Origin: an uncultured Acidobacteriaceae bacterium | GTDB taxonomy: Bacteria > Acidobacteriota > Terriglobia > Acidiferrales > UBA7541 | Assembly (NCBI GenBank): GCA_964407845.1 | Contig: CAYOXF010000104.1 | Span: 250 to 64,249, forward strand | Direction: 5' to 3' | Length of the DNA stretch: 64,000 nt | Shown: piece by piece, positions 2,584 to 54,866 of the stretch | Numbering within the stretch: position 1 is the first letter of the stretch | Layout of the letters: each line of letters starts with the position of its first letter | Notes under the pieces: generated by a model | Told to the model about the DNA's origin: nothing | The model's input: only the letters and a program-made list of their open reading frames with translations | Database searches by the model: none | Translations under genes and position numbers: made by a program

Positions 2584-3498
2584 GTGGTGGCGGATGAAGA
2601 GCCGAAGTATCTCCGGCGCCAAAAGCCGGTCGAGATCAAGCGACGAAAATTCAGCCGACAGGCCTGGAAGACATACCTTCGCGTGACGATGTGGACGGCC
2701 GTCGGTTTGGCTGGCGCGGGCGCTGCGTATCAATGCGGTCGCTTCCTGCTGACATCGCCCGAGATGGCACTGCTTCATCCCGACCAGATCAGTCTCGAAG
2801 GCAATCATTACGTCACGCCGGACAGCGTGCGCAAAGTTTTTCTTCGGGATCGCGGTACGAGCGTCCTCCGAATTCCCATTGCTGAGCGGCGGCGCCAACT
2901 GGAAACGATTGCCTGGGTTGAGCAAGCAGCCGTGCGTCGCGTATTGCCGAACCGTATCCAGGTCGAGATTACCGAGCGCACGCCGATTGCGTTTTTGCGT
3001 GACGCAGGCGACCTTGCGCTCGTCGACGTGCACGGCGTGATCTTGGAACGTCCTCTGGAAGGCGACTTTCATTTTCCTGTGGTGACCGGCATCAGTCGGG
3101 AGATGCCGCTTGAAGACCGGCAGCAGCGCATGCGGCAGTTGTCAAAATTCATCCAGGAGATTGGTTCGGTCAAGCGAGATGCAGCCGACGAGGTGAGTGA
3201 GGTCGACTTGTCAGACGCACGTGACTTGCGGGCGACGCTCACCGGCTTTGAGAACCAATCGGCGTCGGAAGCCAGTGCCCCGGACCGATCGGCGCCGGTC
3301 CTTGTTCATTTTGGAGACAGCGATTTCGTCGGAAAGTATCAGACCTTAGTCGATGAGTTCGGGGCGTGGCAGGCGAGGGCAGGGCGCATTGAGTCAGTCG
3401 ATTTGCGTTTTAGTCGCGAAGCCGTCGTGAATCAAGATGTCACACCTTCGGCCGGCCACGTGCTGGCCGCGAAAGGGACCGAGGGTCGGCCGCACTGA
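2584..3498 (+). CDS. ftsQ: Cell division protein FtsQ (POTRA domain)
   Basis: It has a single N-terminal TM (MWTAVGLAGAGAAY) and a POTRA-like segment (VRRVLPNRIQVEITERTPIAF). Its position between murB and ftsA fits FtsQ. Confidence 0.8.
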   Translation: MVADEEPKYLRRQKPVEIKRRKFSRQAWKTYLRVTMWTAVGLAGAGAAYQCGRFLLTSPEMALLHPDQISLEGNHYVTPDSVRKVFLRDRGTSVLRIPIAERRRQLETIAWVEQAAVRRVLPNRIQVEITERTPIAFLRDAGDLALVDVHGVILERPLEGDFHFPVVTGISREMPLEDRQQRMRQLSKFIQEIGSVKRDAADEVSEVDLSDARDLRATLTGFENQSASEASAPDRSAPVLVHFGDSDFVGKYQTLVDEFGAWQARAGRIESVDLRFSREAVVNQDVTPSAGHVLAAKGTEGRPH

Positions 3499-43995: not shown

Positions 43996-45066
43996 ATGAT
44001 TTTCAACATGTTGGGCGAGGCGACCGAAGAGCAGATCAATCACATCGTGGACCGCATCAAGGAATGCGGTTTCGAAGCCCATCTCATCCGGGGAAAGGAA
44101 CGGACCGTGATTGGAGTCGTGGGCAATAGCGACAAGCGCCGCGAAGAGCTTCTCGCACTCAGCTCCGCACCTGGCGTGGAAGAAATCGTACGCATTTCGC
44201 ATCCCTTCAAGCTGGCGGCACGGAGCGTACGTCCGGAAGGCAGCGTGATCGATCTGGGCAAGGGTGTCGCGGCCGGCGGTTCGGAGGTGATCGTTGCCGC
44301 AGGGCCGTGCGCTGTCGAATCGTCTGAGCAGATTCACACCATCGCCGCGCGCGTCGCCAGGGCCGGCGCCAAGCTGCTGCGCGGCGGGGCCTTCAAGCCT
44401 CGCTCCTCGCCCTATAGCTTTCAGGGTCTCGGAGAGGCGGGGCTGAAAATGATGCGCGAGGCAGCGGACCAAAATGGTCTGCTTGTCGTCAGCGAAGTGA
44501 TGGACCCTTCGCAGATCGAAATCATGCTCCCCTACGTGGATGTGCTGCAGGTAGGGGCGCGCAACATGCAGAATTACCACCTGCTCCGTGGGCTCGGCGA
44601 AGTCGACAAGCCCGTATTACTGAAACGCGGCATGTCCGCGACACTCGAAGAACTGTTGCTGAGCGCCGAATACATCATGTCCGGGGGGAACTACAAAGTG
44701 ATTCTGTGTGAGCGCGGAATCCGCACCTTCGAGACATATCTGCGCAACACGCTCGATATCGCCGCGATCCCCGTTATCAAAAGTCTTTCGCACCTTCCCA
44801 TCTTTGCCGATCCGTCGCACGGTACGGGCCGGCGGGACAAAGTGGCGGCGATGGCGCGCGCGGCCGTTGCGGCCGGGGCCGATGGTCTCATCATTGAGGT
44901 GCATCCCGATCCCGAACGAGCCCTTTCCGATGGCGTGCAGTCACTCTACCCGGATCAGTTCGCACAGTTGATGAAGGAGATTCACCTCATCGCTCCGGCC
45001 GTCGGACGCTACGTCGCCGAGCCAGAGGCTGCGGCCTACGGGGGCGTTGCCTCAGGGGCCCGCTAG
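43996..45066 (+). CDS. 3-deoxy-7-phosphoheptulonate (DAHP) synthase, type I-beta with an N-terminal regulatory domain
   Basis: ATG 43996 (MIFNMLGEATEEQINHIVDRIKECGFEAH, an ACT/ferredoxin-like domain) is followed by a DAHPS/KDO8PS fold (GPCAVES, FADPSHG). Confidence 0.9.
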   Translation: MIFNMLGEATEEQINHIVDRIKECGFEAHLIRGKERTVIGVVGNSDKRREELLALSSAPGVEEIVRISHPFKLAARSVRPEGSVIDLGKGVAAGGSEVIVAAGPCAVESSEQIHTIAARVARAGAKLLRGGAFKPRSSPYSFQGLGEAGLKMMREAADQNGLLVVSEVMDPSQIEIMLPYVDVLQVGARNMQNYHLLRGLGEVDKPVLLKRGMSATLEELLLSAEYIMSGGNYKVILCERGIRTFETYLRNTLDIAAIPVIKSLSHLPIFADPSHGTGRRDKVAAMARAAVAAGADGLIIEVHPDPERALSDGVQSLYPDQFAQLMKEIHLIAPAVGRYVAEPEAAAYGGVASGAR

Positions 45067-45351
45067 ATGAAACCCGTACTTTTGAAAGATTGCGCCTGCT
45101 TCTGAGCTGAGCAGGAATGCGGCGAACTGCTTTGCGGCCGCGGGATTCTTCGAGCCCTTGATGAGCGCGACCGGATAGATGACCGGCGCGTAGGATGTTT
45201 CCGGGGCCCGAGCCACAATCTTTACCTGCGAGGACATCGAGAGTACCTTTCAGGCTGACTCGATAGGAGACGGCTCTGCCGGAGGAGGGGCCAAAGCGAA
45301 GCTCCCGAGGCACACAGCGAGCGACAAAGCCGCAATGCTTTCGAGGACGCG
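45052..45351 (-). pseudogene. modA: modA (molybdate-binding protein) remnant with an internal deletion
   Basis: GTG 45351 follows GGGAGGAGG and encodes a signal peptide (FWRVLESIAALSLAVCLGSFALA). An in-frame TGA occurs at 45250-45252. The frame then reads VKIVARAPETSYAPVIYPVALIKGSKNPAAAKQFAAFLLSSEAGAIFQKYGF, which matches only the last ~57 residues of ModA. The total is about 100 codons against about 250 expected. Confidence 0.6.
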
Positions 45352-45429
45352 CCAGAACACAGACCTCCTCCCAGAAGACGCTCTTCTGCGTCAGATCCAA
45401 TCGATATAACCCGCTTGAGGAGGCTGCGT

Positions 45430-45852
45430 TCAGACGCGAACGATCATTACCTCGGTGGATTTGATGAGCGCGGCTGCCTTATCCCCCACTTTGAGGCGCA
45501 GCTCGCGCACCGCATCGGCCGTAATGATGGAAGTGATTTTTTGTCCCCCGATCGAGAGTGTCACTTGTGCCATCAAACCATCGATCTTCACTTCCGTAAC
45601 ACGGCCGACCAGTTGGTTGCGCCCGCTAATCTGCCGAAAGTGTGCTCTGCGTTCCTCGACCGGCAAGCGCTCGGAATGAAGGTGCAAGAACTTGTCCAAT
45701 TCTGTTTCGGGGATCCGATGATGGCCGCCGGCCGTCTTTACCGTGGCGAGCTTCTTCTTGTATATCCACTGCTTCAGCGTGGGATAACTGATCCCCAGCA
45801 CCTTGGCGGCATCGCGAGGGGTTAGCAGCTTGGAAGTGCGGATCACGTTCAC
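45430..45852 (-). CDS. MerR/excisionase-type HTH + TOBE (molybdate-binding) domain regulator, ModE-like
   Basis: N-terminal HTH (LLTPRDAAKVLGISYPTLKQWI). The C-terminal TOBE domain reads SGRNQLVGRVTEVKIDGLMAQVTL...LIKSTEVMI. Confidence 0.8.
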   Translation of the reverse strand: MNVIRTSKLLTPRDAAKVLGISYPTLKQWIYKKKLATVKTAGGHHRIPETELDKFLHLHSERLPVEERRAHFRQISGRNQLVGRVTEVKIDGLMAQVTLSIGGQKITSIITADAVRELRLKVGDKAAALIKSTEVMIVRV

Positions 45853-45972
45853 TGGACCATGTTTCTAGCCTACCTTGACCCGCCGCGTCAACCGCCCGAG
45901 CGTGCTTGGGCACCCGACGAGGGTCCGTATACCCCCCGTTTAGGGAGTCGCTTCCGATTGCCGGCGGCCGCA

Positions 45973-46001
45973 TTGACAGGGTCCGCCGCCCGGGCTATCC
46001 T
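45973..46001 (+). promoter_or_regulatory. Sigma-70-like promoter for the cys leader (TTGACA-17 nt-TATCCT)
   Basis: A consensus -35, 17-nt spacing and a -10 ending 7 nt before the leader ATG. This implies a leaderless or near-leaderless leader peptide. Confidence 0.5.
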
Positions 46002-46008
46002 GCTTAGG

Positions 46009-46098
46009 ATGAGCCCAGTCCAAGCCACGGCTCGCTGTGGTTGTTGTAGCCCGCGGAAGATGTGTGCGTTGCCGAGGGCGCTGGGATCAACAAGCTAA
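46009..46098 (+). CDS. Cys-rich leader peptide (MSPVQATARCGCCSPRKMCALPRALGSTS)
   Basis: 29 codons, with Cys at 10, 12, 13 and 19 (all TGT). It lies upstream of a terminator and cysD. CCGAGGGCG (46072-46080), inside the ORF, is the exact complement of the terminator 5' arm (46130-46138). Confidence 0.6.
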   Translation: MSPVQATARCGCCSPRKMCALPRALGSTS

Positions 46099-46127
46099 GT
46101 TAAAACAAAAACTGGGCTTGAACGCGG

Positions 46128-46163
46128 CCCGCCCTCGGAGGAGATCCGGGAGGCGGGTTTTTT
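46128..46163 (+). terminator. Intrinsic terminator of the cys attenuator
   Basis: CCCGCCCTCGG-AGGAGAT-CCGGGaGGCGGG is followed by TTTTTTGTT, directly before cysD. Confidence 0.7.
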
Positions 46164-46187
46164 GTTATGGCTAGGGAAGAATTCATA

Positions 46188-47123
46188 ATGGATCTGGACC
46201 CTCAGGACCGAGTGGAGAGCAGGTCGGGCCGTCGCGACCATCTGAAGATGCTTGAGGCCGAGAGCATTTTCATTTTGCGCGAGGCGGCGGCCGAGTTTGC
46301 CCATCCTGTCATGCTGTATTCGATTGGCAAGGATTCTTCCGTGATGTTGCGCCTGGCACAAAAAGCGTTCTATCCAGGCAAGATTCCATTTCCCCTCCTG
46401 CATGTCGATACCAGCTATAAGTTTCCTGAAATGATCGAGTTTCGCGATTGGTATGCCAAACACGTCGGTGCCGAGCTGATCGTGCACAAGAATCAGAAAG
46501 CGCTGGACGAAGGTGCGAATCCCTACACGCTCGGTACGCAGAAGTGCTGCGGGTTGCTGAAGACCCGGTCACTGCTGGACGCGCTCGCCGAAGGTGGATT
46601 CGACGCGGCATTCGGGGGTGCGCGTCGCGACGAGGAGAAGTCACGTGCCAAGGAACGCGTCTATTCATTTCGTGACGCCTTAGGCCAGTGGGATCCCAAA
46701 AACCAGCGGCCTGAGCTGTGGAGCCTCTACAACGGGCGCCATCACAAGGGCGAGAGCATTCGCGTGTTTCCGCTCTCGAATTGGACCGAACTCGACGTCT
46801 GGCTCTACATTCACGAGGAAAAGATTCCCATCGTGCCGCTCTATTTCGCCAAGGAGCGGGAAGCCGTGGTGAGGGGCCATTCGATCCTCCTCACGCAAAC
46901 CGGCGTCCGCTTGTTGCCTGGCGAGAAAAAGGAAATGGTGAAGTGCCGGATGAGATCGCTCGGGTGCGTGCCGTGCACGGGTGGAATCCGATCCGATGCC
47001 GATACAGTCCCCAAGATCATCGAGGAGATGATCTCGTTTCGTCGCTCGGAGCGTGAAAACCGCGTTATCGATCATGACGAAGAGGGCTCGATGGAACTCA
47101 AGAAGCGGGAGGGATATTTCTGA
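46188..47123 (+). CDS. cysD: Sulfate adenylyltransferase subunit 2
   Basis: PP-loop [10 protein letters not shown] and the [11 protein letters not shown] block. ATG 46188 follows AGGGAAG. The ATG at 46167 abuts the terminator T-tract. Confidence 0.95.
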
Positions 47124-48880
47124 TGTCCACAACGAGGCCCGAGTCAGCTCGCTCGGCTCCGACGTCAGTGTCGCCCGCCGCTGCCACGGGAATTGCCGGT
47201 TCGCTCACCCGAAACTCCGAACTGCTGCGATTTTCGACCGCGGGAAGTGTGGACGATGGCAAATCGACGCTCATTGGCCGCCTACTCTACGATAGCCAAT
47301 CGGTTTTCGAGGATCAGCTGGCCTCGGTGAGAAAGAGCAAGATCAATCGGTCGAGTGGTCCGATCGATTTTTCGCTTTTAACCGACGGCCTGCGGGCCGA
47401 GCGCGAGCAGGGAATCACCATCGACGTTGCCTACCGCTATTTCGCGACGCCCCGACGCAAGTTCATCATTGCAGACACGCCCGGCCACGAGCAGTACACA
47501 CGCAACATGGCCACCGGCGCCTCGACCGCTGAGGCGGCCGTTGTTCTGATGGATGCCACAAAGGGTGTTCTGCGGCAGTCACGCCGTCATGCCTTTATCG
47601 CCCATTTGCTCGGCGTCGAGCACATCATCGCTGCTGTGAACAAGATGGATCTGGTGGCGTTTTCCGAGGAAGTCTTCGAGCGCATCGCGGCGGACTTTCG
47701 CGCCTTCGCCGATCAGTTGGGAATCGGCGACGTGTACACCGTTCCGGTGAGCGCGCTAGAGGGCGACAACGTGGTGCGGCCAAGCAAACGCATGCCCTGG
47801 TTTGAAGGCCCTGCCTTGCTGGAATACCTGGAGACGATTCCGGTCGATCGTAAATCCACCCAAGTGCCGTTGCGCTTGCCGGTGCAGTATGTGATTCGGC
47901 CAGATGCGAGCTTTCGCGGGTTCGCTGGCCAGCTCGTGTCGGGCGAACTCGGCCCGGGAATGCCCGTTATGGCCCTGCCGTCTCGCGTGAAGACGCACAT
48001 CCAATCGCTGGTCGCGTTTGAGACGGAAATGGAGTCCGCCACTTCGGGCGATTCCATCACCATCACCCTAGCGGATGAAATCGATCTGAGCCGCGGCGAC
48101 ATGCTCGTCGACCCTCAACACGTGCCCTTGGTGGGCACGGAATTACAAGCGATGGTTGTCTGGATGCATTCCGAACCGCTCGATCCCCACAAAATCTATC
48201 TTTTGAAGCACACCACGCGCACGGTACGTGCTCGCGTTCATCAGATTCGTCATCGCGTCGACATCAACACGCTCGAGCACGTGCCGGCCACGAAACTGGA
48301 CATGAACGATATCGCTGCCGTCGACGTAAAAACGACACTTCCCCTGTTTTTCGATCCGTACCGTCTGAACCGCTCGACCGGCAGCTTCATCCTGATCGAT
48401 CCCTTGACGAATGCCACGGTCGGTGCCGGCATCATTGAGCGCGCGATTGACCACGGCCAAGGAGTGCGCCCCGGCGCGACAGGCCACCGCAAGCGCACCA
48501 CTAGAGACGAGCGCCTGCTGCGCTACGGACATCCCTCAGCGGCCATCTGGCTCAAAGGCCGGCCGCACGTGGCCGAATTGATCGAGCGCATGCTGTTTGA
48601 CGAAGGCTGGCACGTCCAGCTCGCCGGCCCGAATGACTTTTTGGCGCACGAGCTGGCGACTGTCGCGAAAGCGTACCGCTCCTCCGGCCACATTACCATC
48701 TTCTCGCCACTGGACGATGGCACGGATCAAAAGCAGATCGTCCGCGCGATATTCGGTCCAGACTCCTTTTTCCATGTGCGGATCGATGATAAGACTGACG
48801 AAGAAGCTGCCCAGAAAATTGTGGGCATTCTGCGCAAATGGCGCGACACCCACTCCGACAAGGGAAAAAACAAGCCGTGA
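47123..48880 (+). CDS. cysN: Sulfate adenylyltransferase subunit 1 (GTPase) with a degenerate C-terminal APS-kinase-like domain
   Basis: G1 GSVDDGKSTLIGRLL, G3 DTPGHEQY and G4 NKMD. In the C-terminal ~145 aa, which aligns by eye to APS kinase, the P-loop position reads WLKGRPHVAEL. Confidence 0.9.
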   Translation: MSTTRPESARSAPTSVSPAAATGIAGSLTRNSELLRFSTAGSVDDGKSTLIGRLLYDSQSVFEDQLASVRKSKINRSSGPIDFSLLTDGLRAEREQGITIDVAYRYFATPRRKFIIADTPGHEQYTRNMATGASTAEAAVVLMDATKGVLRQSRRHAFIAHLLGVEHIIAAVNKMDLVAFSEEVFERIAADFRAFADQLGIGDVYTVPVSALEGDNVVRPSKRMPWFEGPALLEYLETIPVDRKSTQVPLRLPVQYVIRPDASFRGFAGQLVSGELGPGMPVMALPSRVKTHIQSLVAFETEMESATSGDSITITLADEIDLSRGDMLVDPQHVPLVGTELQAMVVWMHSEPLDPHKIYLLKHTTRTVRARVHQIRHRVDINTLEHVPATKLDMNDIAAVDVKTTLPLFFDPYRLNRSTGSFILIDPLTNATVGAGIIERAIDHGQGVRPGATGHRKRTTRDERLLRYGHPSAAIWLKGRPHVAELIERMLFDEGWHVQLAGPNDFLAHELATVAKAYRSSGHITIFSPLDDGTDQKQIVRAIFGPDSFFHVRIDDKTDEEAAQKIVGILRKWRDTHSDKGKNKP

Positions 48881-49590
48881 CGACGCCCCTGCTCACCGAA
48901 GAATTTGAGAGCCTCTCGGTGGATCGAATCATCGACCGACTGCTCGCCGAGCACGCTTCGGCCGCGGCACGGGGCTCCTTCTGCATCACTTGCAGCTTTC
49001 AGGCTGAAGACATGATCGTGCTCGATTTCCTGCGGCGGCGACTCCCGCGCATTCCCGTGCTGTTTCTCGACACGGGCTATCACTTCGCCGAAACCTACGC
49101 CTATCGCGACCGCATGGCCAGCGCTTGGAATTTGAACCTTCAGAATCTCTCTGCGAAGCAGTCGGTTGCCGAGCAGGAGGCCCAGTTTGGAATTTTGAAC
49201 CGCACCGATCCCGCTCGCTGCTGCCATCTTCGAAAAGTCGAGCCACTATTCGGAGCGCTCGAGGCTTTCGACGTTTGGTTCACGGGGCTGCGCCGCGAGC
49301 AATCCCCTACGCGCAAGAATCTGAAAGTCATCGAGCATCACGAACTTCCCAGCGGCAAGAAACTTCTGAAGGTGAATCCTCTGGCGGCGTGGACCTGGGG
49401 CCAAGTCTGGAAATACACGGCCGAACACGCGATCGATTCTCTGCCGCTTTACGACTTCGGCTATCGCAGCATCGGGTGCGAACCCTGCACTGCGATTCCG
49501 GCCGAAGGAGCGGATGCACGCTCGGGGAGATGGGGAGGCCGGAAACTCGAGTGCGGAATTCACACGGAGTCGAGGCGGGAGGATGAATGA
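48877..49590 (+). CDS. cysH: Assimilatory adenylylsulfate (APS)/PAPS reductase, Fe-S cluster type
   Basis: RCCHLRKVEPL (CC pair), CEPCT (CxxC) and catalytic ECGIH. A GTGA overlap with the cysN stop favours GTG 48877. Confidence 0.9.
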   Translation: MTTPLLTEEFESLSVDRIIDRLLAEHASAAARGSFCITCSFQAEDMIVLDFLRRRLPRIPVLFLDTGYHFAETYAYRDRMASAWNLNLQNLSAKQSVAEQEAQFGILNRTDPARCCHLRKVEPLFGALEAFDVWFTGLRREQSPTRKNLKVIEHHELPSGKKLLKVNPLAAWTWGQVWKYTAEHAIDSLPLYDFGYRSIGCEPCTAIPAEGADARSGRWGGRKLECGIHTESRREDE

Positions 49591-50402
49591 ACCTCCTCAT
49601 CGGGCTTGCCATCGCGCTCGCTGTGGGGCTAACGGGCATTGGCGGCGGCAGTTTCACCGTTCCGGCCCTCGTTCTCCTGGTTGGCATGCCTGCTGAAACG
49701 TCGGTCGGCACGGCCTTCGTTTTTGCAGGTGTCCTCAGGCTGGTGGCAGCACCCTTTTATCTAGCGGGACGTCACGTGCACTGGCGATATCTGTGGCTTC
49801 TCACGCAGGGTGCGGTACCAGGGCTTTTGGTAGGGACGTACGCGCTTCGATGGCTCAGCCATGGCTCCAATAGCCCGATCATCGTCATTCTGCTAGGAAT
49901 GCTGCTGACCGCATCCTCCAGCATCACGTTCATTCCGGCGGCGCAAAACCGCACTTTCACGAAGAAGAATTCGCGCTGGCTGCCGTGGCTCGCACTGCCC
50001 ATCGGCGTGGAGGCGGGATTTTCTTCCGCCGGTGCCGGTGCTCTTGGGACGGTGCTTCTGCTCAACTATTCCGAGATGACGCCACCGGAGGTAGTCGGCA
50101 CCGACATTTTATTTGGCCTCGTGTTGGCTGTGCTCGGAAGTGCTTTCCACTGGAAGTTCGGGTCGATCAGCAGCCGCGTCCTCATTCAGCTACTCGAGGG
50201 CGGATTGCCCGGGGTCATCATCGGCTGCCTGTTCGCGCGTCGCGTGCCGGCTCGAAAACTGAAGCTTGCGATCGCCACGATCGCCATCTTTGCGGGGCTT
50301 CAACTCATCTACAGCGGCTCACGCAGCTTGTGGGGAAGATCTTCTCTCAGAGCGGCCATGGCGGCCGACCGTTCTCGTCCCTATTTGACGAGGCACTGCT
50401 GA
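49587..50402 (+). CDS. TauE/SafE-family (sulfite exporter-like) membrane protein
   Basis: 271 aa and polytopic, starting LIGLAIALAVGLTGIGGGSFTVPALVLL, typical of DUF81/TauE. It has an ATGA overlap with cysH. Confidence 0.85.
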   Translation: MNLLIGLAIALAVGLTGIGGGSFTVPALVLLVGMPAETSVGTAFVFAGVLRLVAAPFYLAGRHVHWRYLWLLTQGAVPGLLVGTYALRWLSHGSNSPIIVILLGMLLTASSSITFIPAAQNRTFTKKNSRWLPWLALPIGVEAGFSSAGAGALGTVLLLNYSEMTPPEVVGTDILFGLVLAVLGSAFHWKFGSISSRVLIQLLEGGLPGVIIGCLFARRVPARKLKLAIATIAIFAGLQLIYSGSRSLWGRSSLRAAMAADRSRPYLTRHC

Positions 50403-51207: not shown

Positions 51208-51756
51208 TTAGATGTCGAAACCAAGCTGCAGCTTGGCGGCTTCCGACATGCGGGCCGGTCCCCAGGGCGGATCGAATACGATTTCGACGTGAACTTCTTT
51301 CACGCCGGGAAGCTGGGCAAGTTTATTTTCCACGTCGGCTTTGAGAACGTTGCCCATTCCGCAGCCTGGCGCGGTCATCGACATTTTGATGTCGATGCGG
51401 CGGCCACCGCCTGCGAGCGGCTCGGTGACGCAGGAATAGATCAAGCCGAGATCCGCGATATTGACCGGAATTTCGGGATCGTACACCGTCTTCAGTTCAT
51501 CCCAGACCATCTGCTCGCTGAACTCGCGTTGTTCAGAAGCGGCAGACTGCACAGGAGCAGGCGGTTTGAGGCCCAGCGCGTCCGCGTTCCTCACATCGAT
51601 ACGGAATAGGCCATAGTCGCTGGCGACTGTGTAGCTGCTGCCGAGGAATTGCATCACACGCACCCCTGCGCCGGCCGGAAGCTTGGCTGGCGCGCCACTC
51701 GGGATCTCAATCGCGTCGCATTCCCGGCTGAGCGTGATATGTCCGCCTGTCGTCAT
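51208..51756 (-). CDS. sufT: SUF-associated Fe-S assembly protein SufT (DUF59/MIP18 family)
   Basis: DUF59 block VYDPEIPVNIADLGLIY...MTAPGCGMG. ATG 51756 is the likely start. Confidence 0.8.
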   Translation of the reverse strand: MTTGGHITLSRECDAIEIPSGAPAKLPAGAGVRVMQFLGSSYTVASDYGLFRIDVRNADALGLKPPAPVQSAASEQREFSEQMVWDELKTVYDPEIPVNIADLGLIYSCVTEPLAGGGRRIDIKMSMTAPGCGMGNVLKADVENKLAQLPGVKEVHVEIVFDPPWGPARMSEAAKLQLGFDI

Positions 51757-51772
51757 CGCCTTGATTTGCAAA

Positions 51773-52222
51773 CTACTCCGTGGTTGTTTCTTGCTTGCCT
51801 TCGAGCGCAGCCTGCAGCGTATGCCAGGCCAGCGTCGCACATTTCACCCGGGCCGGAAATTCCGAGACACCAGAAAAGACGGTTAGTTTTCCCAATTCCG
51901 CATCGCCGTTGGAGTGTCCCAGACCCGTGACAAGCTTGTGAAAGCTCTCAAAGAGTTTTTCCGCTTCGGCCACAGATTTGCCTTTCACGCTTTGGGTCAT
52001 CATCGATGCGGATGCTTTGGAAATGGCGCAGCCAGAGCCCTGAAAGCTGACGTCACGAATGGAGTCACCGTCCAGGGTCAGGTAGACGGTGAAGCGATCG
52101 CCGCACAGCGGATTGAAACCCTCGGCCTTGCGGTTCGAAGCAGGTGATTCGCGATAGTTCCGCGGGGCCTTGCTGTGTTCAAGGATCACGTCCTGATACA
52201 GATCGCGGAGGTCGGACATCAC
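51773..52222 (-). CDS. sufU: SUF system NifU/IscU-like scaffold/sulfur acceptor SufU
   Basis: [20 protein letters not shown] and ARVKCATL Cys motifs. Confidence 0.9.
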
Positions 52223-53469
52223 GCGAACACCTCTCGCACCTTCTCGATTCCCCGCACCAGTCGATCCACTTCCTCTTTCGTGTTGTAGAGCGCGAAGGAA
52301 GCCCGCGCCGTGGCCTCGACTCCAAAGTGTTGCATCACGGGCTGCGAGCAGTGGTGGCCGGTGCGAATGGCGATCCCCTCCTGATCAAGGATTGTGCCAA
52401 TATCGTGCGGGTGAATGTTTTCGAGCGTGAACGAAAGCACGCTGGCCTTCTCTTTCGCCGTACCGATCACACGCAGGCCTGGAATCGCCGCAACGGCGCT
52501 CGTGGCGTAACCGAGGACGGCGCCTTCGTGCGCGCCGACGTTATCTATTCCGAGACTGCTTACGTAGCGGAGAGCTGCACCGAGGCCGATGACGCCCGCG
52601 ATATCCGGCGTGCCTGCTTCAAATTTGTAGGGCAGGCGGTTGTAAACGGTTTTTCCCAATGTCACGGACATGATCATGTCGCCACCGCCCTGATATGGCG
52701 GCATTTTATCGAGCAGCGCGCTCTTGCCGTACAGGACGCCGATTCCTGTGGGACCGTAGAGTTTATGTCCGGAGAAGGTGTAGAAATCGCAGCCGAGCGC
52801 CTGCACGTCGACTTGCAGATGTGGCACTGCCTGTGCCCCATCGACCAGCACGGGCACGTTCCAGCCGTGCGCCATTTCCACGATGCGGCGGATCGGATTG
52901 ATGGTGCCGAGTGCGTTGGAAACGTGCGTAATCGCGACCAGCCTCGTCTTGGAGTTGAGCATGCGCGAGAATCGGTCGAGGTCTAATTCGCCCGCATCAT
53001 TGATGGGCGCCGCACGCAGTGTGGCACCGCGCTCATCACAAAGAATCTGCCACGGAACGATGTTCGAGTGATGCTCCATTTCGGAGATCAGAATCTCGTC
53101 GCCGGCTTCGAGGTGAGGGCGCCCGTAGCTGTGGGCCACAAGATTAATCCCTTCTGTCGTCCCGCGAACGAAGATGATTTCCTTGGAATCTGCGGCATTC
53201 AGAAACTGTTGTGCAGTCTTGCGGACCGCCTCGTAGTCACTCGTTGCCCGCTCGGAAAGGTAGTGCACGCCGCGGTGAACATTCGAGTTGATTTCCTCAT
53301 AGTAGCGGGAAATCGTTTCAATCACCGTGCGGGGCTTCTGACTGGTAGCGGCGTTGTCTAGATAAACGAGCGGCTTGCCATGCACCTTTCGTTCGAGAAT
53401 GGGAAAATCGGCGCGAACCCGCGCGAGGTCGAATCCCGAGCTGGAAACGGTCTTGGCCCCCATACTCAT
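52219..53469 (-). CDS. sufS: Cysteine desulfurase SufS
   Basis: [10 protein letters not shown], the PLP-Lys block [13 protein letters not shown], and RTGHHCSQP (catalytic Cys). An ATGA overlap with the sufD stop supports ATG 53469. Confidence 0.95.
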
Positions 53470-54866
53470 GATGCTGGCTCCTGATGCCTCCAGGCACCAC
53501 TCTGGTAACCCAATTCGTGCTGTATGAGATTCTCTACGAAGCTGTGCGCCAGACCCGTCCTCATTCGATCGAGGCATTCACTGGCGAACGCAAAGAGCAA
53601 AAGGCGGCGTGCCGACGCTTCGTCAATGCCGCGCGAGCGCAAATAGAAAAGGGCGTTTTCTTCAATCTGGCCGATGGTGGCGCCGTGCGTGCACTTGACG
53701 TCGTCGGCGTAGATTTCAAGTTGCGGCTTCGTATCGATCTGAGCGGTATCGGAAAGCAGCAGGTTGCGGTTGGTCTGCTTGGCATCGGTCTTCTGAGCGT
53801 TTTTGTGAACGATGATCCTGCCGTGAAAGACGCCGTGAGCATGTCCGTCGAGGATTCCGTTGTAGAACTGGCGGCTACTCGAATGGGGGCTGGCATGCTC
53901 GACGAGCATGTAATTGTCCAAATGCTGGTGATGACGGCCCAGGAAGAGGCCGTTGATCAGGCACTCGCCACCCTCCCCTGCTAGCACCGGATGCACGTTG
54001 TTCCGAACCAGCGCGCCGCCGGCCAGCACAGAATGTGAGGCGACGTCGGCCGTTCGGCCCTGCTGAATGCGAAGCGTCGAAACATTGAAGGCTTGCTCAT
54101 CCTCGCGCTCGATCATGTAATGAGAGATCACACTGTGATCGCCGGCAATGAGCTCCGTGGCCGTATTGCACAGCACCCTTTCGCCGCGGCCGAGCGAAAT
54201 GTAGTCCTCGATGATGGTGATCTGGCTATCTTCGCCGGCGACGATCAAGTTGCGAGGGTGGCTCACGACCGGGGCCTCGTGAGCGGTCGAGATAAACAGC
54301 AGATGAATCGGCGCTTCGACGACCGCTCCCTTCGGCACGTCTACGTAGGCACCGTCTTCTAAAAACGCTGTGTTCAAAGCCGAAAAGGGGTCCCGTTGGA
54401 TATCGAGATAGCGACCCAAGTAGGGCTCGACGGCCCCGGGATCTTTCGCTATTGCGGCGGCGAGGCTTCCGACTCGTACGCCCTTTGGCAAATTAGACGA
54501 GGAAGAAAGCGACGCGGCCCAACGGCCGTCGACGAAAACAAGCTCCGAAGCGGCTCCAGCGAGATGATAGGCGGACACCTCGGCTGGCGATGGCCAGTGG
54601 TGGCCATTGCGCAGGAGACGAAAGGGCGTTTGTGCGATTGTCGAAAGATTCGTAAACCGCCAATCCTCATCGCGCAGGGTAGGGAAACCGGTCTCACCGA
54701 AGCGCGCAAAGCCCTGCTGGCGGAGCTGGCGCAGCCAGGAAGGCTCACGGGCAGCGGATTTCTCAAGCCCGCTGAAGTGTTGGGCGTAATTTTGAAGAGC
54801 CTGTGCGGTCGTTGCCAACGTGATGTCCCTCACTGCCCGATTCAGGCTGGGCTCGCCCCGCGCCAA
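53466..54866 (-). CDS. sufD: Fe-S cluster assembly protein SufD
   Basis: SufB/D-family beta-helix C-terminus ([25 protein letters not shown]). The start is ATG 54866 (25-nt overlap with sufC) or GTG 54833. Confidence 0.9.

Follow-up and report, generated by a model that had tools for sequence, protein, structure and literature searches.

Leader peptides that sense cysteine have been described in mycobacteria, which encode polycysteine, leaderless small open reading frames (sORFs), namely Ms5788A and, in Mycobacterium tuberculosis, Rv2334A, Rv0815A, Rv0485A, and Rv2391A (Canestrari et al. 2020, 10.1101/834739; PMC13096801). These sORFs have been studied experimentally, and according to the authors, attenuation by a cysteine-rich upstream ORF (uORF) was previously undescribed (10.1101/834739). 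They act on translation: the cysteine tract pairs with the downstream Shine-Dalgarno region in one very stable duplex, and no intrinsic terminator is involved (10.1101/834739). Another candidate is the uORFC-8-2 motif of cysS in Rhodobacterales, which consists of a predicted uORF with tandem Cys codons, a stem, and a U-run (Brewer et al. 2021, PMC8632094). Candidate cysteine leader peptides have also been reported for cys and cbs operons of Actinobacteria, with their mode of action left open (Seliverstov et al. 2005, PMC1262725). Here, we analyse a stretch of 64,000 nucleotides (contig CAYOXF010000104.1, hereafter the window) from a Terriglobia acidobacterium, in which a cysteine-rich mini-ORF, an intrinsic terminator, and a complementary antiterminator strand precede the sulfate assimilation genes cysD-cysN-cysH-tauE.

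Acidobacteriota are among the most abundant soil bacteria. To our knowledge, almost nothing is known about gene regulation in this phylum, and we know of no characterised attenuator within it. According to an earlier survey, almost none of the predicted acidobacterial attenuators has been assigned a function (PMC2965389). Full-text literature searches returned nothing on cysteine leader peptides in Acidobacteria, and no terminator-based cysteine attenuator upstream of cysDN. We consider it likely, with a probability of roughly 0.8, that the leader in the window belongs to the classical ribosome-mediated transcription attenuators (trp/his type), and that it would sense charged tRNA-Cys and control cysD-cysN-cysH-tauE. 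A ribosome-mediated attenuator for sulfate assimilation was the core of the original prediction, made from the letters of the window, and it is supported in silico by conservation, covariation, and constrained folds, from which we infer the function. The sequence elements themselves, their conservation, their covariation, and the mutual exclusivity of terminator and antiterminator are demonstrated in silico.

All elements of the leader lie on the plus strand. A promoter scan of the region returned, as its top-scoring promoter-like site, a TTGACA hexamer (-35, 45973–45978) separated by a 17-nt spacer from a TATCCT hexamer (-10, 45996–46001), with 10 of 12 matches. The ATG of the mini-ORF follows 7 nt downstream of the -10 box. 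This mini-ORF (46009–46098) has 29 codons, ends in a TAA at 46096–46098, and would encode MSPVQATARCGCCSPRKMCALPRALGSTS, with cysteines at codons 10, 12, 13, and 19, every one of them a UGU. Both the promoter, located about 7 nt ahead of a 29-codon ORF, and the four cysteine positions had been claimed by the original prediction; the sequence and the scan bear them out. The frame itself stays open upstream as far as an ATG at 45859, and the length of 29 codons holds only if the start is defined by the promoter. No usable Shine-Dalgarno sequence was found ahead of the ATG of the mini-ORF.

Downstream of the stop codon lies an intrinsic terminator, composed of a hairpin of -22.4 kcal/mol (46128–46157; 5' arm or region 3, 46128–46141; 3' arm or region 4, 46147–46157) and a U-tract of T6 (46158–46163), whose T-run is kept in the alignments of relatives. 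Inside the mini-ORF, CCGAGGGCG (46072–46080) is a perfect 9-nt complement of CGCCCTCGG (46130–46138) within the 5' arm of this hairpin. The terminator adjoining the cysD start and the 9-nt match had likewise been predicted, and both are present where stated. A simple terminator scanner reported 0 sites in the window, owing to a bulge in the stem; terminators were instead found by folding and with a custom finder of hairpins followed by T-runs. The sequence CCGAGGGCG is the core of region 2 (46072–46089), the 5' strand of the antiterminator, in which weaker pairs continue onward to 46089. The antiterminator duplex has an energy of -22.7 kcal/mol, as against -15.9 kcal/mol in mononucleotide shuffles (p=0.035). 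When region 2 is paired with its own terminator arm the energy is -21.9 kcal/mol, compared with a mean of -13.8 kcal/mol with arms taken from other loci, none of which (0/42) is as good.

The whole 176-nt region folds moderately better than its shuffles (z=-2.65). In the free full-length leader, the terminator is intact and 46049–46056 pairs with 46072–46079, so that GCCCGCGG (region 1, 46049–46057), which pairs with region 2 in free-RNA minimum-energy folds, may tentatively be taken as an anti-antiterminator. The stop codon of the mini-ORF sits in the 5' arm of a further hairpin (46091–46120; z=-3.6 versus shuffles), which the antiterminator helix would enclose in its loop. In the minimum-energy fold of the full-length leader, the terminator forms. 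Folding under constraints gives two different outcomes: when 46009–46057 is masked to mimic a ribosome whose A site holds Cys13, and the RNA has emerged no further than 46141, the terminator arm is paired to region 2, and when 46078–46108 is masked, as by a ribosome at the stop codon, the antiterminator helix is impossible.

From these elements, the following sequence of events can be proposed. Transcription would start at the A of the ATG at 46009, or 1 nt earlier, and a ribosome would load onto the leaderless mini-ORF while the leader is still being transcribed. When Cys-tRNA is scarce, the ribosome would stall at the UGU codons 10, 12, and 13 (46036–46047) and cover region 1 (46049–46057); region 2 (46072–46089), thereby freed, would pair with the emerging 5' arm of the terminator (46126–46139), the terminator would be blocked, and the polymerase would continue into cysD. 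When Cys-tRNA is plentiful, the ribosome would reach the stop at 46096 and either occupy the 3' part of region 2 or leave, allowing regions 1 and 2 to pair. The terminator (46128–46157) and its U6 would then form, and the transcript would end near 46163.

Two steps of this scheme hold in a more restricted form than first claimed. The first is that a stall at the Cys codons frees the antiterminator: the fold constrained at Cys13 does show the helix, but a ribosome stalled at Cys19 (UGU, 46063–46065) would mask the antiterminator and abolish it. This codon is not conserved either, being replaced by Phe in the related locus L001 and by Ser in many leaders of a large subfamily of relatives (type B). 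Because Cys19 is unconserved and a stall there would mask the antiterminator, the sensing codons are probably Cys10, Cys12, and Cys13, within the run UGU GGU UGU UGU (Cys10, Gly11, Cys12, Cys13; 46036–46047), without Cys19. The second is that a ribosome at the stop codon covers the antiterminator: its 3' extension (46081–46089) is covered and the constrained fold abolishes the helix, but the 9-nt core is reached at the edge at most.

To place the window among its relatives, 160 cysD loci were gathered, 80 from genomes (one per species) and 80 from metagenomes. The best CysD matches are at most 88% identical and come from Terriglobia metagenome-assembled genomes labelled 'Candidatus Acidiferrales/Acidoferrales', which marks the window as acidobacterial. 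The 151 loci with sufficient upstream sequence were surveyed for sense-strand ORFs no longer than 50 codons that contain four or more Cys, among them an adjacent pair. Such a mini-ORF is present in 48% of the cysD upstream regions, versus 1% of their reverse complements and 3.3% of dinucleotide shuffles, and mini-ORFs with at least 6 Cys are found at 21% of the cysD loci versus 0.3% in shuffles. They occur in Acidoferrales-like, Acidobacteriaceae, Terriglobus, Granulicella, and Terracidiphilus loci, and are largely absent from Bryobacterales/Solibacter and non-acidobacterial cysD loci in the sampled set. Nine more Cys-Cys mini-ORFs exist within the window, in line with the shuffle rate, and are taken as chance; those checked on the ORF map are inside or antisense to long ORFs, as is the one at 3069–3152 (minus strand), antisense in ftsQ. 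Three loci from Zetaproteobacteria (Mariprofundus; L064, L067, and L068) carry a different conserved frame, C(N/S)GW.CCDSALC, upstream of cysD, which has no Rfam match and could be another cysteine leader or a conserved RNA.

Clear homologues of the leader were detected by nhmmer in the closest four loci alone, whose mini-ORFs read in the same register as that of the window: MQNAPLMTLCGCCCCRPNCALPRAAGNTV in L081, MSLMLPNSCCACCNTARMCASPGALGFMS in L082, MNLMPLGACPVCSCCCPDVFTPAGAPGFAS in L001, and MNSRPRCACSACCNGTNVCYAGAPDFTI in L051. All four retain the ATG, the Cys run, and a stop codon at the same position (TAA or TAG), whereas most other residues differ; the ATTGAC of the -35 region is also kept in L082, L001, and L051. 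More widely, the number of Cys per leader ranges from 3 to 11, peptide length and Cys spacing are variable, and the longest run is CCCCC. Outside the Cys run, which is the sole conserved feature of the peptide, the sequences are barely conserved and unrelated between subfamilies. The Cys runs mix TGT and TGC and are always in frame with a nearby start codon. The interchange of TGT and TGC and the swap of TAA and TAG at a fixed position are codon-level signatures rather than an RNA or operator motif. A conservation check of the mini-ORF and terminator upstream of cysD orthologs had been proposed together with the original prediction, and both prove to be conserved across Terriglobia loci.

These codon-level signatures bear directly on an alternative in which a riboswitch-like RNA responding to a sulfur compound, or a protein-binding RNA, flips the same terminator and antiterminator, the Cys-rich ORF being incidental. 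A terminator/antiterminator platform would suit a riboswitch equally well; the free RNA of the window is predicted to form several stems, with a P1-like stem (46010–46019/46080–46089) enclosing two hairpins, and the nucleotides GUGUGC and GGGCGC are conserved at the RNA level among relatives. Against this, close relatives do not share the upstream stems, and what is conserved is instead an in-frame TGY run with synonymous T/C exchange, an ATG placed 6–7 nt past the -10 box, and an in-frame stop kept at a fixed distance from the antiterminator. Unrelated Cys-run mini-ORFs also precede other genes in relatives. A search of window positions 45000–47000 against Rfam 15 gave no match at E<=10, and a search of 10 related loci gave no leader match at the gathering score, by which a known riboswitch or leader family is rejected. 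We consider such an RNA-based sensor extremely improbable.

The choice of codon in the Cys runs is a further argument for sensing by a ribosome. In the leaders of the 82 Cys-mini-ORF loci, 305 of 419 Cys codons (73%) are UGU, whereas UGU makes up 11% of those in adjacent cysD genes and 24% of those in the long ORFs of the window; the difference between leaders and cysD is significant in a Fisher test (p about 3e-77) and runs opposite to the genomic preference in a genome of 59% G+C. This bias is consistent with selection, at the sensing codons, for slow decoding by wobble, and the preference for the rare UGU would thereby probably sharpen the ribosome stall. It also poses the general question of whether attenuators tune their sensitivity through wobble-decoded codons.

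The same bias is opposite to what is expected of an efficiently expressed protein, and therefore speaks against another possibility, namely that the product of the mini-ORF is itself functional, as a Cys-rich micro-protein that is metal- or redox-active or serves as a peptide precursor, and that the ORF has a terminator of its own, cysD being reached by leaky, unregulated read-through. Cys-rich small proteins do exist, the products of some mycobacterial Cys-containing sORFs are stable (PMC13096801), and within subfamilies there is some conservation at the C-terminal end of the peptide (for example, SSGxGRLV). This conserved C-terminus, however, coincides with the RNA segment that changes together with the terminator arm. 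Moreover, the variation in length, in Cys number, and in spacing leaves no fixed motif, and it is the location directly upstream of sulfate assimilation genes that is conserved. A micro-protein as the function of this ORF is very unlikely in our judgement.

Translation of the mini-ORF from a leaderless or near-leaderless transcript, which had also been predicted, is supported by the spacing between promoter and start codon across relatives. Promoter-like sites adjoin 49% of the mini-ORF starts versus 2% of random start codons. A promoter is recognisable in 40 relatives; in 22 of them (55%), 6–7 nt separate the -10 box from the mini-ORF start, against a background of 24% for this spacing (p=2e-5), and the gap is exactly 7 nt in the window, L001, and L081. 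This spacing, together with the lack of a Shine-Dalgarno sequence, implies a transcript that would be leaderless or carry a 1-nt leader. Such starts would be plausible in the phylum, since Acidobacteria are predicted to use leaderless genes, at about 13% of genes (PMC3160421).

The terminator and the antiterminator are conserved as well. An intrinsic terminator (hairpin and T-run) is found about 30 nt past the stop codon in 51 of the 82 Cys-mini-ORF loci, and the consensus structure of a 28-leader alignment is the terminator stem, in which 5 of the 10 pairs have changed on both sides. For the antiterminator, column-wise covariation on a MAFFT alignment was dropped, the subfamilies being offset by one codon; pairs were counted instead in a codon-anchored register, controlled by sliding and by permutation. 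In this register, a 6-bp core is paired in 85% of the cells across the 28 leaders, compared with 33–52% in slid registers, a level matched by 0 of 2000 permutations. The core pairs are CCGAGG/CCUCGG in the window type and CUGGCG/CGCCAG in the large subfamily, so that the two types are read as differing by compensatory changes at several antiterminator positions. In addition, antiterminator strands pair more stably with the terminator arm of their own locus than with foreign arms (mean difference -1.4 kcal/mol; Wilcoxon p=0.004). Both the own-versus-foreign-arm test and the codon-anchored register test preserve base composition. The 9-nt complementarity noticed in the window is therefore kept in relatives through compensatory changes, as the two tests indicate.

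The position of the antiterminator relative to the reading frame is also maintained. In type B leaders, the segment that pairs best with the terminator 5' arm typically begins about 12 nt downstream of the last Cys-Cys codon, and about 9 nt separate its 3' end from the end of the stop codon; in the window, the two distances are 23 nt and 9 nt. With either geometry, region 2 is free when the ribosome is on the Cys run and partly covered when the ribosome is on the stop codon. A hairpin at the stop codon, often of the form CUAG...CUAG, is found in 23 of 46 relatives. As a universal part of the element it is rejected, being present in about half of the loci, and it is best regarded as an optional feature.

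The candidate cysD start at 46167 lies 3 nt past the U-tract of the window, and an ATG right after the T-run is shared with L082 and L001. This arrangement allows for a third alternative, in which the mini-ORF does sense cysteine and acts mainly on translation or on Rho-dependent polarity, the hairpin occluding the cysD ribosome-binding region 4–10 nt downstream. A GGAGG (46149–46153) is contained in the 3' arm of the terminator, the mycobacterial precedent is translational (10.1101/834739), and Cys mini-ORFs lacking a U-tract terminator, in which the Cys tract is predicted to pair near the cysD ribosome-binding region, exist in a subfamily of Acidobacteriaceae leaders. On the other side stand the canonical G+C-rich hairpin with U6 in the window and the terminators of 51 of 82 loci, and the GGAGG is not conserved, being absent in L001. 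Most loci with a terminator have their cysD start 100–170 nt past it, a distance that excludes a general mechanism based on hiding the ribosome-binding site. In the window folds, the Cys codons lie in or beside a local hairpin (46023–46042), and are never paired with the cysD ribosome-binding region. A mainly translational or Rho-dependent action appears quite unlikely on these grounds. Either may nevertheless operate in the window as an additional layer, because cysD abuts the terminator there and because the terminator-less Acidobacteriaceae subfamily exists.

This subfamily, with leaders of the form M..R.SCCRLSNIFDGC..*, was observed in L033, L035, L038, L039, L041, L046, L150, and L157, and has no U-tract terminator. 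RNAalifold pairs its UGUUG Cys tract with a CAGCA located about 35 nt upstream of the cysD ribosome-binding site, and an invariant hairpin is found within the mini-ORF. It may represent a different output platform, translational or Rho-dependent. Among cultured relatives, Granulicella sp. dw_53 (L043) has the element, and terminator-less forms are found in Terriglobus sp. ADX1 (L030) and Terriglobus albidus DSM 26559 (L008).

Several points weigh against transcription attenuation by a stalled ribosome as the mechanism in the window. At equilibrium, the terminator beats the antiterminator in all folds; the switch must therefore be kinetic, as it is in the trp attenuator. The antiterminator also appears in the minimum-energy fold of the ribosome-free nascent RNA, and the model thus requires that the hairpin between regions 1 and 2 forms beforehand. 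This hairpin is not alignably conserved, and the close relatives each have some hairpin there. The 9-nt core sits at the outermost edge of the footprint of a ribosome on the stop codon, and the leader of the window has just four Cys codons with one tandem pair. Among relatives, antiterminator energies reach p<=0.05 versus mononucleotide shuffles in only 34% of loci taken singly; the p-values are also optimistic, given the phylogenetic relatedness of the loci. Finally, the transcription start site, the translation of the mini-ORF, the stall, and the Cys-dependent read-through are steps that we infer from sequence.

Downstream of the leader, all genes of the putative operon are on the plus strand. 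Pfam and NCBIfam matches identify cysD, the small subunit of sulfate adenylyltransferase (46167–47123, with its start at 46167 or 46188), cysN, the GTPase subunit (47123–48880), and cysH, of the APS/PAPS reductase family (48838–49590), and a domain match identifies the last gene as encoding a TauE/SafE-family membrane protein (49587–50402). According to these assignments, the products of the operon make sulfite that feeds cysteine synthesis. CysN has 585 amino acids and a C-terminal extension resembling a degenerate APS kinase domain: it aligns to the bifunctional CysN/CysC model through position 582 of 632 with a score under the cut-off, and Pfam finds no APS_kinase domain in it. The kinase-like C-terminus is thus probably degenerate, which would fit an APS reductase route. 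A second promoter-like match, TTGTTA-16-CATAAT (46162–46189, plus strand), overlaps the U-tract and the cysD start. In such AT-rich sequence it is probably a product of chance; were it genuine, transcription from it would bypass the attenuator.

Divergently from the leader, a gene at 45430–45852 (minus strand) encodes a small regulator with an HTH_17 domain (excisionase-type) and a TOBE/Mop oxyanion-binding domain. It was considered as a partner regulator and rejected, being shared with L081 alone among the 160 loci; L001 has at this position an ORF that is ModA-like, judged by its sequence. Just downstream of the cys operon are genes for iron-sulfur (Fe-S) cluster assembly, a cysteine-consuming process (51208–53577, minus strand), including those for an FeS_assembly_P protein (51208–51840) and a class-V aminotransferase/cysteine desulfurase (52219–53577). 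The adjacent minus-strand ORFs, up to 57145, are presumably suf genes.

Relatives carry additional promoter-adjacent Cys-run mini-ORFs near the cysD leader, which are often divergent from it; some have terminators and some are in tandem. They are found on the minus strand in L148 (1009–1104 and 829–876), L154/L155 (1059–1160), L079 (2541–2594), and L118 (758–808), and on the plus strand in L041 (688–735, plus a second sORF further downstream). The genes that follow them encode TonB-dependent receptors (CarboxypepD_reg and Plug domains), a porin of the Alginate_exp family, and a porin-like ORF. Their distribution suggests that relatives may possess a multi-operon, cysteine-sensing regulon that includes genes for outer-membrane uptake. 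A broader proposal, to which we give slightly less than even odds, is that Terriglobia have evolved, independently of mycobacteria, a genome-wide cysteine regulon read by ribosomes on leaderless, UGU-biased poly-Cys mini-ORFs. It would use at least two output platforms, the terminator/antiterminator and the terminator-less form of Acidobacteriaceae, and would control cysDNH together with TonB-dependent receptors and Alginate_exp-type porins, with the rare codon tuning its sensitivity. The Cys mini-ORF signature could then flag sulfur-starvation genes in uncultured Terriglobia, such as the TonB-dependent receptors and porins of the relatives. For Acidobacteriota, the leader described here offers a concrete and testable regulator of sulfate assimilation, and the first well-supported attenuator of the phylum.

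When set beside the known systems, the element of the window shares its logic with the classical attenuators. As in trpL, hisL, thrL, leuL, and pheL of E. coli, a promoter-proximal mini-ORF is enriched in codons for the end product. As in classical attenuators generally, an intrinsic terminator is located ahead of the first structural gene, an antiterminator strand complementary to the 5' arm of the terminator lies just past the sensing codons, and the stop codon is placed such that a terminating ribosome would interfere with the antiterminator. A number of differences can be noted. Unlike the E. coli leaders, that of the window would sense cysteine, its sensing codons are biased to the rare synonymous codon, and its mini-ORF is apparently leaderless, without a Shine-Dalgarno sequence and with its ATG 6–7 nt past the -10 box. 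Moreover, the pause hairpin of classical attenuators has no demonstrably conserved counterpart in regions 1 and 2.

With the mycobacterial sORFs, the element has in common consecutive Cys codons upstream of cysteine or sulfur genes (Cys12-Cys13 in the window, up to 5 in relatives), a stalled ribosome that would read charged tRNA-Cys, and, in relatives of the window, several independent Cys mini-ORF loci per genome; its start may be leaderless as well. Unlike in these sORFs, the Cys tract of the window pairs with no ribosome-binding site, and a canonical terminator/antiterminator pair would serve as the output; the two also come from different phyla and show no apparent sequence homology. Their similarity is most likely convergent, with an apparently independent origin of leaderless poly-Cys mini-ORFs in two high-G+C phyla that live in soil. 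Cysteine sensing by leader peptides would thereby be extended from the translational control known in Actinobacteria to a terminator-based form.

The uORFC-8-2 motif of Rhodobacterales resembles the element in its predicted Cys uORF, stem, and U-run, read as ribosome-mediated attenuation. It belongs to Alphaproteobacteria, controls a tRNA synthetase gene rather than sulfate assimilation, and has two Cys codons only, mostly UGC, which are located inside the first stem. The actinobacterial candidates are similar in that short ORFs ahead of cysteine biosynthesis operons contain Cys codon runs close to their stop, but they come without terminators or other attenuator elements, whereas the window has a full, covarying terminator/antiterminator set. 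Cysteine-specific leader peptides had been called rare in the original prediction: they are indeed uncommon, but already known in mycobacteria (10.1101/834739) and predicted in Rhodobacterales (PMC8632094). The element of the window is thus probably an undescribed member of the classical class of ribosome-mediated attenuators, and not a categorically new one.

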